This document shows, piece after piece, positions 20,537 through 46,984 of a stretch of 64,000 bases of DNA (positions within the stretch are counted from its first letter, which is position 1; every line of letters begins with the position of its first letter). The DNA comes from Alphaproteobacteria bacterium. GTDB taxonomy: Bacteria > Pseudomonadota > Alphaproteobacteria > Sphingomonadales > Sphingomonadaceae. Where the stretch lies: contig QBLU01000012.1 in assembly GCA_003241875.1 (NCBI GenBank), forward strand, positions 757-64,756, written 5' to 3'. The position numbers were made by a program, and so were the translations under genes. The notes beneath the pieces are model-generated. The model had not been told where the DNA came from, made no database searches, and saw nothing but the letters and a program-made list of their open reading frames with translations.

Positions 20537-20669
20537 CTCCCTCCCCCTTGAGGGGAGGGCGACTCGGCGCCAGCCGAGCGGGGTGGGGGTTTACGAGCGA
20601 CGACGTTGGGGACCCCCACCCCGCTCGCGCGAGCGCGAGTCGCCCTCCCCGCAGGGGGGGGGGAGGGGG
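20537..20669. repeat. Palindromic intergenic repeat, family C (CCCTCCCC...GGGGAGGG type)
   Basis: Hairpins CCCTCCCC-n-GGGGAGGG at both ends, with GGGTGGGGGT/ACCCCCACCC inverted arms; contains a G10 run at 20654-20663; a related hairpin is at 36783. Confidence 0.65.
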
Positions 20670-35963: not shown

Positions 35964-36773
35964 ATGGCGACCATCCTCGACAATCGTGGCGTCGATCATC
36001 GGGGCTTTACCGGGCGGGGCGACGACGGCTTTTTCCTGCGTGCGGCCTTCGGCATGGCCGCCGTCATCGCCGCCGGCTTTTCGCTGCAGCTGGCGATGGG
36101 GCGATCGAGCTTTGCCTCGCCGCCGCTGGTCCATGCCCATGCCATCGTCTTCATGGGCTGGGTGGCGCTCTACCTCGCGCAGAACTGGTTCGTCGCGACC
36201 GGCAACCGCGCCATGCACCGCCGACTCGGCTGGCTGGCGACCGGCTGGGTCGTCGCCATGGTGGTGCTCGGCTTTGCGGTGACGCTGGCGATCGTCCGGC
36301 GCGGGCAGGTGCCGTTCTTTTTCCAGCCGGTGCAGTTCCTCGTCTTCGATCCGCTGTCGGTGCTGACCTTTGCCGGGCTGACGGCGGCGGCGGTGGCGCT
36401 GCGCCGGCAGACCGACTGGCACCGGCGGCTGCATTTCTGCGGCATGTCGATGCTGCTCGGGCCGGGCTTTGGCCGGCTGCTGCCGATGCCCCTGATCGCG
36501 CCCTGGGCGTTCGAGGCGACGTTCGTGGCGACGCTGATCTTCCCGATCATCGGCGTCGTTGCCGACCGGCGCCGCCGCGGGCGCGTCCATCCGGCCTGGG
36601 GCTGGGGCATCGGCACGATGGTGGCGACGCTGCTGCTGGTGGAGGTTATCAGCTACAGCCCGGCGGGGACGGCAATCTATGACCGGGTGACTGCCGGGAC
36701 GCCGGGCGCCGCGGTGTCGCCGCTGGCGTTTCCGCCGCCGCCGGGGAACGGGCGCGTAACCGGGAGAACATGA
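35964..36773 (+). CDS. Conserved multi-pass membrane protein of unknown function
   Basis: About six hydrophobic segments; HAHAIVFMGW, HRRLGW, WHRRL and HPAW motifs. Confidence 0.75.
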   Translation: MATILDNRGVDHRGFTGRGDDGFFLRAAFGMAAVIAAGFSLQLAMGRSSFASPPLVHAHAIVFMGWVALYLAQNWFVATGNRAMHRRLGWLATGWVVAMVVLGFAVTLAIVRRGQVPFFFQPVQFLVFDPLSVLTFAGLTAAAVALRRQTDWHRRLHFCGMSMLLGPGFGRLLPMPLIAPWAFEATFVATLIFPIIGVVADRRRRGRVHPAWGWGIGTMVATLLLVEVISYSPAGTAIYDRVTAGTPGAAVSPLAFPPPPGNGRVTGRT

Positions 36774-36782
36774 GCCGATTGA

Positions 36783-36807
36783 CTCCCTCCCCGCAAGGGG
36801 GAGGGAG
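36783..36807. terminator. Hairpin between convergent genes (family C repeat core)
   Basis: CTCCCTCCCC-GCAAG-GGGGAGGGAG. Confidence 0.55.
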
Positions 36808-43564: not shown

Positions 43565-43963
43565 GCCGAAGCGCGGCCACGCGTAGCGAGACGATTGCGC
43601 AGCAATCGCCTGCTACGCGCGGACTCGCGCAAGGCCGGACGGCGAGCGAAAGAGGGCGCCCCAGCAGGGGCGCCCTTTTTTGACTCGTCCGACGGCGCGG
43701 CCTGGCCGCGTTCTTTCTGGCTTTGTTCACTGAGGCGCCGCGGACTCGGCGGCTCGGCCGCCGGCCGCATCCCCAGCGCTATTTGGAAGTCACGAAGGCA
43801 GGAAGTCACGAAGGCAGGAAGCGCATGGGCAAAGCCCATGCTGGCGTCGGACGGGTTCGGTCGGGGTACCCGACCGCCCCGCCGGCCGGTCTTGCGCGAG
43901 TCCGCGCGCAGCAGCGAATTGCTGCGCAATTCTGCCGCTGCGCGTGGCCGCGCTGCGCCTTAA
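43562..43963. repeat. ~400-bp intergenic element with ~85-bp imperfect inverted arms, internal terminator hairpin and 16-bp tandem repeat
   Basis: Left arm from 43562 (AGCGCGGCCACGCG...GCGCGGACTCGCGCAAG) is mirrored up to 43963; AAAGAGGGCGCCCC...GGGGCGCCCTTTTT hairpin near 43650-43681; GGAAGTCACGAAGGCA x2.3 at 43785-43821. Confidence 0.75.
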
Positions 43964-44436
43964 TCCACCGGCACCCCCGGCCGGCTCAGCGCCGTCCTGA
44001 TCACGAAACTCGTCTTGACGCTCTCGACATTCGGCGCCGGGGTCAGCGCGCTGGTCAGGAACTTTTGGAACTCCTGCAGGTCATGCGCGACGACCTTGAG
44101 GATGAAATCAATCTCGCCGTTGAGCATGTGGCATTCGCGGACCTGGGGCAGGGCGGCGACATGGTCCTCGAAGGCCTTGAGGTCGGCCTCGGCCTGGCTG
44201 CGCAGCGACACCATCGCGAACACGGTGATGCCATAGCCCAGCGCCTGGGCGTCGAGATCGGCGTGATAGCCGTGGATGGTGCCGTTTTCCTCCAGCGCCC
44301 GCACGCGGCGCAGGCAGGGCGGCGCGGTCAGCCCGGCGCGTTCGGCGAGCTCGACATTGGTGATGCGTCCCTCGGCTTGCAGATGGCGGAGAATGACACG
44401 GTCGATATCGTCGATTGGCAACCTTGAACGGTGCAT
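43960..44436 (-). CDS. Lrp/AsnC-family transcriptional regulator
   Basis: IDDIDRVIL.HLQAEGRITNVELA; PCLRRVRALEE; ECHMLNGEIDFILKVV. Confidence 0.95.
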   Translation of the reverse strand: MHRSRLPIDDIDRVILRHLQAEGRITNVELAERAGLTAPPCLRRVRALEENGTIHGYHADLDAQALGYGITVFAMVSLRSQAEADLKAFEDHVAALPQVRECHMLNGEIDFILKVVAHDLQEFQKFLTSALTPAPNVESVKTSFVIRTALSRPGVPVD

Positions 44437-44598
44437 CCGTGAAACTCCACGTCTCTGTAATGACCTTGCTCAATAACAATATTACCGAAACGCGCAAGTC
44501 TGCTTGTCCAATATAAGCTGGGATGCGACCGTCGCGGGGGGTGCAAAATGTTGCGCCAGCGACTAACTACAGGGCTGTCCAACGCAGGAAAATCGACC

Positions 44599-45603
44599 GT
44601 GCCCGAAACCCGTCATGTCCGTGTCTTGATCATCGGCTCCGGCCCCGCCGGCTATACCGCCGCGGTCTATGCCGCCCGTGCGGCGCTTAACCCGGTGCTC
44701 ATCCAGGGGTTGCAGCCCGGCGGCCAGCTGACCATCACCACCGAGGTCGAGAACTGGCCCGGCGACACCAGCGTGCAGGGCCCCAACCTGATGGTGCGTA
44801 TGGCCGAACAGGCGGCGCATGTCGGCACCGAACTGGTCAGCGACATCGTCACCCGCGTCGACACCAGCCGGCGGCCGTTCAGCGTCGAGACCGATTCGGG
44901 CCAGACCTGGCTTGCCGACACGCTGATCATCTGCACCGGCGCCCAGGCGCGCTGGCTCGGCATTCCTTCGGAAACGCGGTTTCGCGGCTTCGGCGTGTCG
45001 GCCTGCGCGACCTGCGACGGTTTCTTCTTCCGCAATCGCACCGTGGTCGTCGTCGGCGGCGGCAACACCGCGGTCGAGGAGGCGATGTTCCTGACCAATT
45101 TCGCGTCGAAGGTGCATCTCGTCCATCGCCGCGACGAACTGCGCGCCGACAAGACCAACCAGGCGCGGCTGTTCGCCAACCCCAAGATCGAGATGCACTG
45201 GAACGCCGAGATCGCCGAGGTCGAGGGCAGCGCCGATCCGCTGACCGTGACGGGCGTCGTGCTGCGCGATACCGGCACCGGCGCCACCCGGCCGCTGGCG
45301 GCGGACGGCCTGTTCATCGCCATCGGTCATGTCCCGGCGACCGAGCTGTTCGTCGGCCAGCTGGCGATGGACGACGAGGGCTATCTGATCACCGCGCCCG
45401 ATTCGACCGCGACATCGGTGCCCGGCGTGTTTGCCGCCGGCGATGTGAAGGACAAGATCTACCGCCAGGCGGTGACGGCGGCGGGCATGGGCTGCATGGC
45501 GGCGCTGGAGGCGGAACGCTTCATGGCGCACGGGCTGCACGGTGCCAACGGCGTCGACGAGGAGGCGCTGGACGCAGCCGATGTGGACGCAGCGGCGGCG
45601 TGA
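44599..45603 (+). CDS. trxB: Thioredoxin-disulfide reductase
   Basis: IIGSGPAG; GGQLTITTEVENWPG; SACATCDG; GGGNTAVEEA; YRQAVTAAGMGC. Start probably GTG 44599. Confidence 0.96.
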   Translation: MPETRHVRVLIIGSGPAGYTAAVYAARAALNPVLIQGLQPGGQLTITTEVENWPGDTSVQGPNLMVRMAEQAAHVGTELVSDIVTRVDTSRRPFSVETDSGQTWLADTLIICTGAQARWLGIPSETRFRGFGVSACATCDGFFFRNRTVVVVGGGNTAVEEAMFLTNFASKVHLVHRRDELRADKTNQARLFANPKIEMHWNAEIAEVEGSADPLTVTGVVLRDTGTGATRPLAADGLFIAIGHVPATELFVGQLAMDDEGYLITAPDSTATSVPGVFAAGDVKDKIYRQAVTAAGMGCMAALEAERFMAHGLHGANGVDEEALDAADVDAAAA

Positions 45604-46520
45604 ACCTCGACTGGGAAAAGCTGCGCCTGTTCGAGCTGGTCGCCGAGGCCGGCAGCTTTACCGAGGCGGCGCGGCGCCTGCACATGAGCCAGCCGGCGCT
45701 GAGCCGCCAGATCGGCGCGCTCGAGGACCAGATCGGCGCCAAGCTGTTCCATCGCCACGCCCGCGGCCTCGCCATGACCCACGAGGGCGAGCAGCTGCGC
45801 GCCGCCACCCACGACATGCAGGACCGGCTGGAGCGGACGCGCCAGGCCATCGATGCCTCGCGCGACCGGCCGACGGGCGAGATCCGGCTGACCACCACGG
45901 TCAGTTTCGGCTCCACATGGCTGGCGCGGCAGCTCGGCGATTTTCTCGACCTTTATCCCGACATCAACGTCAGCCTGCACCTGACCGATCTCGACGTCGA
46001 CCTGGCCAAGCGCGAGGCCGATGTGGCGATCCGGTTCCACCTGCCGTTCCAGGCCGAGCTGGTGCAGAAGCCGCTGCTGCCGATCCGGCATTTCCTGTGC
46101 GCGTCGCCGGACTATCTCTCCCGCCATGGCGTGCCCAAGACCGTTGCCGACCTCGATGCCCATCGCCTGATCGCCTATGGCGACACCGCGCCCGAGTTTC
46201 TGAAGGGCATCAACTGGGCGCTGCAGCTTGGCCATGAAGGCGCCCCGCGCACCGCGGCGCTGACCATCAACAACAGCCATGGCGTGCTGCAGGCGGTGGA
46301 GGCAGGCGCCGGGATCGCCGCGCTGCCGAGCTATCTCATCCGCTTTTCAGGCAGGGTGAAGGTCGTGCTGCCGGAAATCGAAGGCGCGGTGTTCCGCACC
46401 TATTTCACCTATCCGGTCGAGCTGCGGCGATCGCTGCGCGTCGCGGCGCTGCGCGATTTCCTCGTCGAGCGGATGACGCCCGCGAATCTCGATATCGATG
46501 GTCACGCGCTGGGCGCATGA
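45600..46520 (+). CDS. LysR-family regulator, LsrB/VtlR-like by sequence and trxB linkage
   Basis: LDWEKLRLF..VAEAGSFT.AA...SQPA.SRQI HTH; LFHRHARGL; GTGA overlap with trxB. Confidence 0.92.
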   Translation: MNLDWEKLRLFELVAEAGSFTEAARRLHMSQPALSRQIGALEDQIGAKLFHRHARGLAMTHEGEQLRAATHDMQDRLERTRQAIDASRDRPTGEIRLTTTVSFGSTWLARQLGDFLDLYPDINVSLHLTDLDVDLAKREADVAIRFHLPFQAELVQKPLLPIRHFLCASPDYLSRHGVPKTVADLDAHRLIAYGDTAPEFLKGINWALQLGHEGAPRTAALTINNSHGVLQAVEAGAGIAALPSYLIRFSGRVKVVLPEIEGAVFRTYFTYPVELRRSLRVAALRDFLVERMTPANLDIDGHALGA

Positions 46521-46562
46521 GCACGCCATGCGGCCGCGAGCCCCATGCGCTGGACGGCCGTT

Positions 46563-46577
46563 ATGCGCTGGGCGCAT
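46563..46577. promoter_or_regulatory. LysR-type T-N11-A palindromic box about 65 bp upstream of the predicted sRNA start
   Basis: ATGCGC-TGG-GCGCAT, with partial copies near 46504 and 46545; promoter-like TGCACA-N17-TAATTA at 46601-46629. Confidence 0.6.
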
Positions 46578-46634
46578 GGCTGGGCTGCATTATTGTGCGG
46601 TGCACAATCATGAACCGAAAGCCTAATTAAACCG

Positions 46635-46826
46635 TGTGGCCGTCACCGACGGCGCTACATCCGGCAATGTCCTCCCCGACATGCGGATGCATGGTTACCG
46701 CGGCCGCCCTCCCCTGATTGGCCCCGGTGACCGACCCGCGCGCCGGCACCCCTTCCCCCCTCGGGTCAGGCGCCGCGGGTCACATATTCGGGCCGGGCCT
46801 GCCATGCGCAGGCCCGGCCCTTTTTT
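46635..46826 (+). ncRNA. Candidate trans-acting sRNA with three C-rich anti-Shine-Dalgarno loops (AbcR/alpha-r15- or cuckoo-like)
   Basis: Hairpins with loops CTCCCC (46672-77), CCCTCCCC (46707-14) and CTTCCCCCC (46752-60); strong terminator 46790-46826 with T6. Confidence 0.65.
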
Positions 46827-46910
46827 GTGTCCGGCCCCGATCGGGGTGATCGGTCGAAAGCTATGGTTGCCCCGTCACCGCTTGATGCGCTACGCCGTCG
46901 CGGCCGGGCC

Positions 46911-46984
46911 GGGCCTGTAGCTCAACGGTAGAGCCGGCCGCTCATAACGGCTAGGTTGGGGGTTCGAATCCCTCCGGGCCCACC
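46911..46984 (+). tRNA. tRNA with CAT anticodon (probably Ile2/lysidine type, alternatively elongator Met)
   Basis: GGGCCTG/CGGGCCC acceptor stem; GGCCG-CTCATAA-CGGCT anticodon arm; TTCGAAT T-loop; ends ACCG, so CCA is not fully encoded. Confidence 0.9.

Follow-up and report, generated by a model that had tools for sequence, protein, structure and literature searches.

LsrB/VtlR, a regulator of transcription of the LysR type (LTTR), and its small RNAs (sRNAs) have been studied as regulators of symbiosis and virulence in rhizobia, Agrobacterium and Brucella. In rhizobia the genes are arranged in the order lrp (minus strand), trxB, lsrB and AbcR sRNA (PMC7486931). LsrB of S. meliloti activates both AbcR1 and the three-seed RNA NfeR1, and AbcR1, AbcR2 and NfeR1 pair at ribosome-binding regions, thereby blocking initiation (PMC8844928, PMC10746234). 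In the AbcR family, ABC-transporter mRNAs are repressed at the ribosome-binding site with the help of Hfq. The AbcR seeds are M1, CUCCCA, in the first hairpin loop, and M2, GUUCCC, in the linker, CUCCCC being the AbcR2 variant of M1 (PMC5461406); NfeR1 (alpha-r14, Sinorhizobium) carries unpaired anti-Shine-Dalgarno (anti-SD) motifs in hairpins with differing stems, and LsrB activates the nfeR1 promoter through a T-N11-A box whose last bases are GCAT and which occupies about -72 to -60 (PMC10746234). The VtlR/LsrB consensus, GCAT-N3-TG-N3-T, is found at -61 to -49 in the promoter of S. meliloti abcR1 (PabcR1), where it precedes a core of the CTTGAC-N17-CTATAT type and tandem T-N11-A motifs occur (PMC8844928, PMC7486931). 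The present analysis concerns a 64,000-nucleotide stretch of DNA from a member of the Sphingomonadaceae (contig QBLU01000012.1; hereafter the window), and in it an element of about 190 nt at the 3' end of a trxB-LysR gene pair, which an earlier note had proposed to be an AbcR-like sRNA. With a probability of roughly 0.7, it is read here as an LsrB-activated, probably Hfq-assisted anti-SD sRNA, a counterpart of AbcR1 with the layout of NfeR1. This reading starts from observations of four kinds: structure and its conservation, synteny, orthology of the regulator, and identity and spacing of the operator. From the names attached to the closest LysR loci, the host genome would belong to the Sandarakinorhabdus/Polymorphobacter group of the family.

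A structured sRNA gene of this size is very likely real. The fold of 46630-46830 has a minimum free energy of -113.6 kcal/mol, compared with -85.6 ± 4.7 kcal/mol for shuffled sequences (z = -5.9), and none of 200 shuffles folded as well. Folding together with a terminator scan located every structural element drawn in the earlier note, namely a 5' hairpin, three C/U loops and a terminator whose stem of 13 bp is followed by U6 (stem-loop 46790-46820, T6 at 46821-46826). The loop of the second stem-loop reads CCCUCCCC followed by UGAU, the seed stretch being CCCUCCCC, and the C-run that forms the seed of the third is CUUCCCCCC. The loops resemble the anti-SD at the 3' end of the 16S rRNA, which in the genome of the window ends in ...CACCUCCUUUCU, and the same genome contains an hfq gene (G000:C14:68151-68351).

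BLAST of the region returned homologues of 69-85% identity in genomes of the same genus, in whose alignment the promoter blocks and the terminator are conserved and the stems are variable; RNAalifold, applied to ten sequences, recovered all five helices, with compensated changes in 22 of 53 pairs. The covariance model of the RNA, R1, has one sense match in the genome of the window, which makes the sRNA single-copy there, and matches on the plus strand 55-150 nt past the LysR stop in about 70 of the 75 LysR loci of named genomes. The genera with a match behind the LysR gene are Sandarakinorhabdus, Polymorphobacter, Glacieibacterium and Sphingoaurantiacus, and weakly Sphingosinicella. Across 300 genomes of the family, all seven matches with E <= 1e-9 adjoin the LysR gene, six of them with trxB in the same stretch. 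Matches with E > 4e-8 lie away from lsrB, were found on inspection to be 3' ends of genes with terminators, and were rejected as homologues.

The earlier note had named missing conservation and covariation of the stems as grounds for abandoning its proposal. In 48 distinct homologues, whose alignment was fitted to the covariance model, so that the pairing figures have to be read with that caveat, double-sided changes occur in 43 of the 53 pairs, the covariation score is 0.549 (controls 0.06-0.11), and 93% of cells are paired, compared with 33-49% when the partners are slid by 1-3 columns. The three C-rich seed loops have likewise held up: they remain 77-79% C and about 0% G across the homologues while the stems covary, and all but one of 49 homologues have CUCCCC. 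Versions of the sRNA with two hairpins exist in one further genome (G019), in Glacieibacterium and in Sphingosinicella.

The gene order of the window, lrp on the minus strand, trxB, the LysR gene and the sRNA gene, is identical to that of the Rhizobiaceae control loci, in which tandem ar15 copies follow lsrB, and a divergent lrp upstream of trxB-lsrB is also seen in the Rhizobium and Hoeflea loci. The synteny with Rhizobiales stated in the earlier note is thus borne out both by these loci and by the published order (PMC7486931). The GTG start of the LysR gene overlaps the TGA stop of trxB (GTGA), and the gene is predicted to be translationally coupled to trxB. Across all PDB sequences the best match of the encoded protein is A. 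tumefaciens LsrB (9HH1; 263 bits, E 3.5e-77), the second-best LTTR reaching 96.6 bits, and with the 9HH1 sequence as query the window LysR is the single match in its genome; no NCBIfam model reached its cut-off with this protein. Being closest to a characterised LsrB, present in one copy per genome and in an operon with trxB, it is an orthologue of LsrB/VtlR. LsrB has been called unique to Rhizobiales in a 2025 paper (PMC11975290). The 9HH1 query found one orthologue each in 153 of 301 sampled alphaproteobacterial genomes (42-54% identity); for orthologues from further families of this order (GTDB) the identity is 44-59%, and many genera of the Sphingomonadaceae are without an orthologue.

The redox pair of A. 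tumefaciens LsrB is Cys144/Cys273 (PMC11975290). In an alignment of the orthologues of loci L049-L188, all four Rhizobiaceae proteins have Cys at both positions, and the 65 non-rhizobial ones have Cys at 144 in three cases and at 273 in three, with Val/Ile at 144 and Val/Thr at 273 apart from few exceptions, and mostly no or one Cys. The equivalents in the window protein are Val142 and a Thr. The thiol switch of LsrB therefore looks like a rhizobial speciality, as far as this alignment reaches.

The palindrome that the earlier note had set about 65 bp upstream of the RNA is present and contains the published consensus at the published distance: GCATGGCTGGGCT, which makes up the right half of ATGC-N7-GCAT, has the GCAT-N3-TG-N3-T box of AbcR promoters, and the box is conserved. 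In Sinorhizobium alkalisoli, ATGCGCGCACGGCATGGCTGACAT stands before the ar15 copy adjoining lsrB, its GCAT occupying -61 to -58, and the extended motif ATGC-N7-GCAT-GGCTG is common to the window and the S. alkalisoli PabcR1 at equal distance. In an ungapped stack of 49 promoters, numbered from 46634, ATGC occupies -71 to -68, GCAT -61 to -58 and GCTG -56 to -53, followed by TTGTGCAnTGCACAA at -41 to -27 and (c/g)TAnAT at -12 to -7. The ATGC and GCAT halves are essentially invariant and at fixed spacing, with coding overlap or not. In most relatives the last codons of lsrB (..HALGA-stop) are part of the operator, the lsrB stop lying inside the box about 58 nt upstream of the RNA; where it is non-coding, as in S. 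limnophila, in genome G008 and in the window, the box is equally invariant. In the window the 3' end of lsrB is locally duplicated, the coding copy (46503-46520) being degenerate, with ACGC for ATGC, and the copy at 46563-46579 perfect; similar tandem duplications are seen at L057 and L118. The ATGC-N7-GCAT palindrome also occurs 3' of lsrB in 3/3 Rhizobiaceae, 12/20 order-level and 8/20 class-level loci. This phylogenetic footprint refines the LsrB operator to ATGC-N7-GCAT-RGCTG.

The promoter TGCACA-N17-TAATTA of the earlier note lies where it was placed, but its "-35" belongs to a second conserved palindrome, and its -10 is better read as CTAATT, the alphaproteobacterial sigma-70 consensus being CTTGAC-N17-CTATAT (PMC8844928). 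The second palindrome, in its exact form TTGTGC-N3-GCACAA, is found at this one site in the genome and is conserved in most of the 49 promoters. The two palindromes are centred near -66 and -36, 30 bp apart. LTTRs classically use a recognition site together with an activation site, and the two palindromes are probably these, the activation-site part of the assignment resting on established LTTR knowledge. It is likely that the sRNA gene depends on LsrB. A sigma-54 promoter in GCTGGGCTGCA was discarded by inspection, its spacing departing from GG-N10-GC. The only other TGTGC-N3-GCACA in the genome (TTGTGCAGCGCACAC, G000:C45:75930-75942) lies between two divergent genes and lacks a partner of the ATGC-N7-GCAT type.

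A second promoter of the same type was found elsewhere in the genome. The motif ATGC-N7-GCAT-RGCTG has two sites in 3.8 Mb, one in the sRNA promoter and one at C20:36368, the latter followed at equal spacing by TGATGCAGTGCACAAT and a -10. Behind the C20 site comes an open reading frame (ORF) of 46 amino acids (aa) with a good Shine-Dalgarno sequence, whose promoter consists of ATGC-N7-GCAT-RGCTG, TGCAGTGCACAAT and a -10, as that of the sRNA does. The ORF has the pattern MKV...EPxxxP...RLFHAL, matches no Pfam family and is conserved in 20 of 25 genomes of the genus; the promoter type recurs before nearly all 20 copies, three of them without an exact upstream palindrome, and a second palindrome of the TTGTGC-N3-GCACAA type is conserved there as well. 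The known direct VtlR regulon consists of the AbcR sRNA and the small hypothetical proteins BAB1_0914, BAB2_0512 and Atu1667. The finding of a second promoter before a small ORF mirrors this regulon of sRNA and small proteins and lends independent support to the motif as a real operator. LsrB probably controls the 46-aa ORF too, as a second gene of its regulon.

Table 1. Features of the predicted sRNA gene, its promoter region and the surrounding locus (positions in the window unless a contig is given).
Feature	Position	Strand	Basis or remark
sRNA gene, ~190 nt, predicted 5' end 46634-46637	46634-46826	+	covariance model match 169 bits, fold, covariation
5' hairpin GCCGUC-ACC-GACGGC	46639-46653	+	6 pairs, 5 compensated, 99.6% of cells paired
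Stem-loop 1, loop CUCCCC (46672-46677), seed 1	46658-46689	+	12/12 pairs covary; loop 77% C, 0% G
Stem-loop 2, loop region CCCUCCCCUGAU (46707-46718), seed 2	46693-46732	+	8/9 pairs covary; loop C/U-rich in all homologues
Stem-loop 3, loop CUUCCCCCCUC (46752-46762), seed 3	46733-46781	+	helices 5+6: 10/13 pairs covary; loop 79% C
Single-stranded A/U-rich linker ACAUAUUC, possible Hfq contact	46782-46789	+	A/U-rich in homologues too
Intrinsic terminator: 13-bp stem (12 G-C), loop CAUGC, U6	46790-46826	+	terminator scan; 99.7% paired, 8/13 pairs covary
Palindrome ATGCGC-N3-GCGCAT (ATGC-N7-GCAT, T-N11-A), proposed LsrB recognition site	46563-46577	.	centred near -66
GCATGGCTGGGCT, fits VtlR/LsrB consensus GCAT-N3-TG-N3-T	46574-46586	+	~-62 to -50 from predicted start
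Second palindrome TTGTGC-N3-GCACAA (T-N11-A), proposed LTTR activation site	46593-46607	.	overlaps -35, 30 bp from first
Core promoter: -35-like TGCACA, N17, -10 TAATTA	46601-46606 and 46624-46629	+	alphaproteobacterial -10 better read CTAATT, 46623-46628
Degenerate operator duplicate in last lsrB codons, CACGCGCTGGGCGCATGA = H-A-L-G-A-stop	46503-46520	+	ATGC half-site lost
lsrB/vtlR orthologue, LysR-type, 306 aa, one Cys	45600-46520	+	PDB search
trxB, thioredoxin-disulfide reductase	44548-45603	+	NCBIfam TIGR01292, 396 bits, above cut-off
Lrp/AsnC-family regulator gene, divergent from trxB	43960-44436	-	Pfam AsnC_trans_reg + HTH_24
tRNA-Met	46911-46984		3' of sRNA gene
46-aa ORF MKVILQDYEPRQRPFGDAEQKTKPMVRKPRLRLNPVGSDNRLFHAL	G000:C20:36119-36256 (locus L126)	-	promoter C20:~36290-36368, good Shine-Dalgarno

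With respect to known families, the RNA of the window resembles AbcR1 (alpha-r15; Sinorhizobium, Agrobacterium, Brucella) in its locus (divergent lrp, trxB, lsrB, sRNA), in its operator (ATGC-N7-GCAT with GCAT-N3-TG-N3-T at about -61 to -49), in its C-rich single-stranded anti-SD seeds and intrinsic terminator, and in a regulator whose regulon includes a small ORF, as does the set of genes preceded by the motif of the window. It differs in size and shape, with about 190 nt and five helices as against about 112 nt and three helices, in having three loop seeds instead of one loop and one linker seed, in being single-copy, whereas AbcR1 occurs in tandem copies, in a regulator devoid of the Cys144/Cys273 pair, and in the second palindrome over the -35, which is specific to the lineage of the window. 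With NfeR1 it shares a layout of three hairpins and three seeds with variable stems and the LsrB-type box. The seeds of NfeR1, however, are three identical CCUCCUCCC, and the RNA of the window has three non-identical loops, CUCCCC, CCCUCCCC and CUUCCCCCC, none of which is CCUCCUCCC; it has an extra 5' hairpin, nfeR1 itself is located away from lsrB, and no NtrC site was seen, none having been sought. At gathering thresholds no Rfam family matched the region, and at E <= 10 the matches on 46450-46920 were at chance level, the best being SorX (E 0.044), with alpha-r14 not among them. Of the AbcR-like counterpart proposed in the earlier note, then, position, operator, regulator and anti-SD loops have stood, the ar15 model and the exact seeds have not, and the layout is equally NfeR1-like. 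The RNA is best described, from these comparisons, as a counterpart of AbcR1 that falls outside ar15 as the family's own covariance model defines it. A literature search found no sphingomonad AbcR-like RNA described.

A wider comparison is offered by uncurated sRNAs linked to lsrB throughout the class, found 50-300 nt past the lsrB stop in the same order (L148-L165) and in the same class (L166-L185), in tandem copies at L162, L164 and L180. In them the 5' hairpin, GAUGUUGCGACGCAGCAUC, is followed by anti-SD hairpins and by the conserved 3' module ACGUCUCCCAGACGU-GAAGCCUCCCUGUUAGAC-terminator, whose score with the SorX model (RF02784) reaches 43.2 bits at most (E 1.5e-7; gathering 46.6). SorX of Rhodobacter, which depends on Hfq, represses the potA ABC-transporter mRNA and stems from the 3' untranslated region (3' UTR) of an OmpR-type gene. 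The RNA of the window has in common with these sRNAs the position behind trxB-lsrB, the ATGC-N7-GCAT box and the 5' and anti-SD hairpins, but it is without the 3' module (SorX 18.9 bits, E 0.044) and has a third C-rich hairpin instead. It can be rationalized as a lineage-specific remodelling of the class-wide lsrB-linked sRNA, in which the 3' module is lost and a third C-rich hairpin is present.

The following mechanism is proposed. The window would contain an independently transcribed gene for a trans-acting sRNA, placed where the trxB-lsrB operon has its 3' end. The LsrB/VtlR-type LysR would bind ATGC-N7-GCAT-GGCTG near -66, and probably also the palindrome over the -35, and recruit RNA polymerase to the weak sigma-70 promoter TGCACA-N17-TAATTA. 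The 13-bp/U6 terminator would stop transcription and probably serve the lsrB mRNA too; some of the RNA may arise by processing. The three loops composed of C and U only (CUCCCC, CCCUCCCC and CUUCCCCCC) would mimic the 16S anti-SD and pair with the G-rich Shine-Dalgarno (SD) regions of target mRNAs, such that initiation is blocked, and the A/U linker and the U-tail would probably recruit Hfq. Repression by anti-SD pairing appears reasonably probable, by analogy with the characterised relatives.

Several points weigh against this picture and have to be set beside it. A generic sigma-70 scan of the region returned no promoter, a silence in keeping with a promoter that needs an activator and has a poor -35. 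Since the operator overlaps the last lsrB codons in most relatives, its conservation could be partly coding. The redox pair is absent from the LsrB of the window, and for this reason the signal and the activator role of the protein are putative. No ar15 (RF02345) match was obtained at gathering (40 bits), at E <= 10 or genome-wide, so that the ar15/AbcR membership check suggested in the earlier note came out negative; the positive control, tandem copies that follow lsrB in Sinorhizobium, Rhizobium and Hoeflea, gave 92-123 bits. An ar15 search of 300 genomes of the class gave no match but is uninformative, the named controls being silent as well. The seeds CUCCCA and GUUCCC are absent from 46634-46826. 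Loop complementarity of at least 8 nt within -30 to +6 of 3,067 crude gene calls was found 96 times, compared with 85 in the reversed control, and pointed to no target class; the TonB-receptor or transporter mRNAs suggested in the earlier note are hypothetical targets. Finally, transcription, dependence on LsrB, the pairing mechanism, the role of Hfq and the targets are all deduced from sequence.

A ranking of targets by duplex energy was dominated by GC-rich stems and by a repeat resembling repetitive extragenic palindromes. This palindromic repeat, CCCTCCCC-N3-5-GGGGAGGG followed by CGACTCGCG..CGCGAGCGGGGTGGGGG, has about 120 copies genome-wide, often at contig ends; two are in the window (20540-20558 and 36786-36804). 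Some copies stand directly 5' of start codons, the SD being buried in a perfect hairpin, and the G-rich arm of the repeat is complementary to the sRNA loops. As a separate observation, past the stop of an ammonium-transporter-like gene at two loci, L026 (G286:C7) and L027 (G287:C12), the 3' UTR has hairpins with UUCUCCUCUCCUUUCCCC and CCUCC loops, behind which stands a strong terminator; in these other Sphingomonadaceae, which lack lsrB, an anti-SD sRNA may derive from the 3' UTR.

Other explanations of the element can be formulated. The occurrence of a -10, a -35-region palindrome and an LsrB box at fixed spacing in 49 species, wholly non-coding cases included, is difficult to reconcile with the suggestion that the RNA has no promoter of its own and is a structured 3' UTR of the trxB-lsrB mRNA, either processed out in the manner of SorX or serving to stabilise or terminate the message in cis. 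To be sure, lsrB and the RNA are not separated by a terminator, the close-lying lsrB stop of most relatives implies that lsrB transcripts must enter the RNA, and SorX-type 3'-UTR sRNAs exist in alphaproteobacteria; yet the unlinked 46-aa ORF has the same promoter, and the rhizobial equivalent possesses a mapped LsrB-dependent promoter of equal geometry. A 3' UTR as the whole explanation is thus held to be unlikely, and an own promoter and 3'-UTR processing may coexist as two routes to the RNA.

The C-rich loops might alternatively be a protein-binding site or a sponge for G-rich RNAs, for example transcripts of the roughly 120-copy GGGGAGGG repeat, and not engage in mRNA-specific pairing. Three near-equivalent, strongly conserved loops per molecule, an abundant repeat whose G-rich arm is perfectly complementary and the outcome of the scan, from which no specific target class emerged, speak for this. 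It is nevertheless considered improbable, given that the characterised relatives of like regulator and seed type, AbcR1, AbcR2, NfeR1 and SorX, all pair at ribosome-binding sites and that no protein binding C-rich loops is known in the group. Least likely is that the element works in cis, as leader or processing signal, on the tRNA-Met or on the MprF-like gene, which encodes a flippase domain and is the next gene after it, or else that it is a chance GC-rich fold or a repeat with no function of its own. The tRNA-Met does follow the RNA in several relatives and GC-rich genomes do fold well by chance, but a strong U6 terminator separates RNA and tRNA-Met, the downstream neighbour changes by genus while the link to lsrB is constant, and the covariation is far above the controls for an RNA that is single-copy. 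An overlapping ORF of 94 codons, which runs through the terminator into the tRNA, is excluded as coding by non-triplet indels between close relatives. The reading as an LsrB-activated anti-SD sRNA is accordingly preferred to these alternatives.

As to its wider meaning, the outcome is an sRNA family that comprises about 70 species, has gone unannotated and is invisible to Rfam; the covariance model R1 can be used for its annotation. The type of mechanism is not new; the circuit was not previously described in the lineage of the window, within the literature searched. Tentatively, one may imagine LsrB, an anti-SD sRNA behind lsrB and a small-protein gene to be ancestral to Alphaproteobacteria and no speciality of Rhizobiales, the RNA having been rebuilt as a trivalent SD mimic in the Sandarakinorhabdus/Polymorphobacter lineage by loss of the SorX-like 3' module and gain of a third seed hairpin. 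If this were true, the non-rhizobial LsrB would sense something other than thiol oxidation, because it is essentially cysteine-free, and the trivalent SD mimic could be a broad damper of translation, or a sponge, and not a regulator of a few transporters. Independently of that idea, the locus shows in free-living freshwater sphingomonads the regulator known from the symbionts and pathogens, its operator at an unchanged distance, an sRNA with anti-SD loops in the corresponding place and, before a small ORF, a second promoter of this type. It provides a natural test case both for what LsrB senses without redox cysteines and for the gain and loss of seed loops in sRNA evolution.

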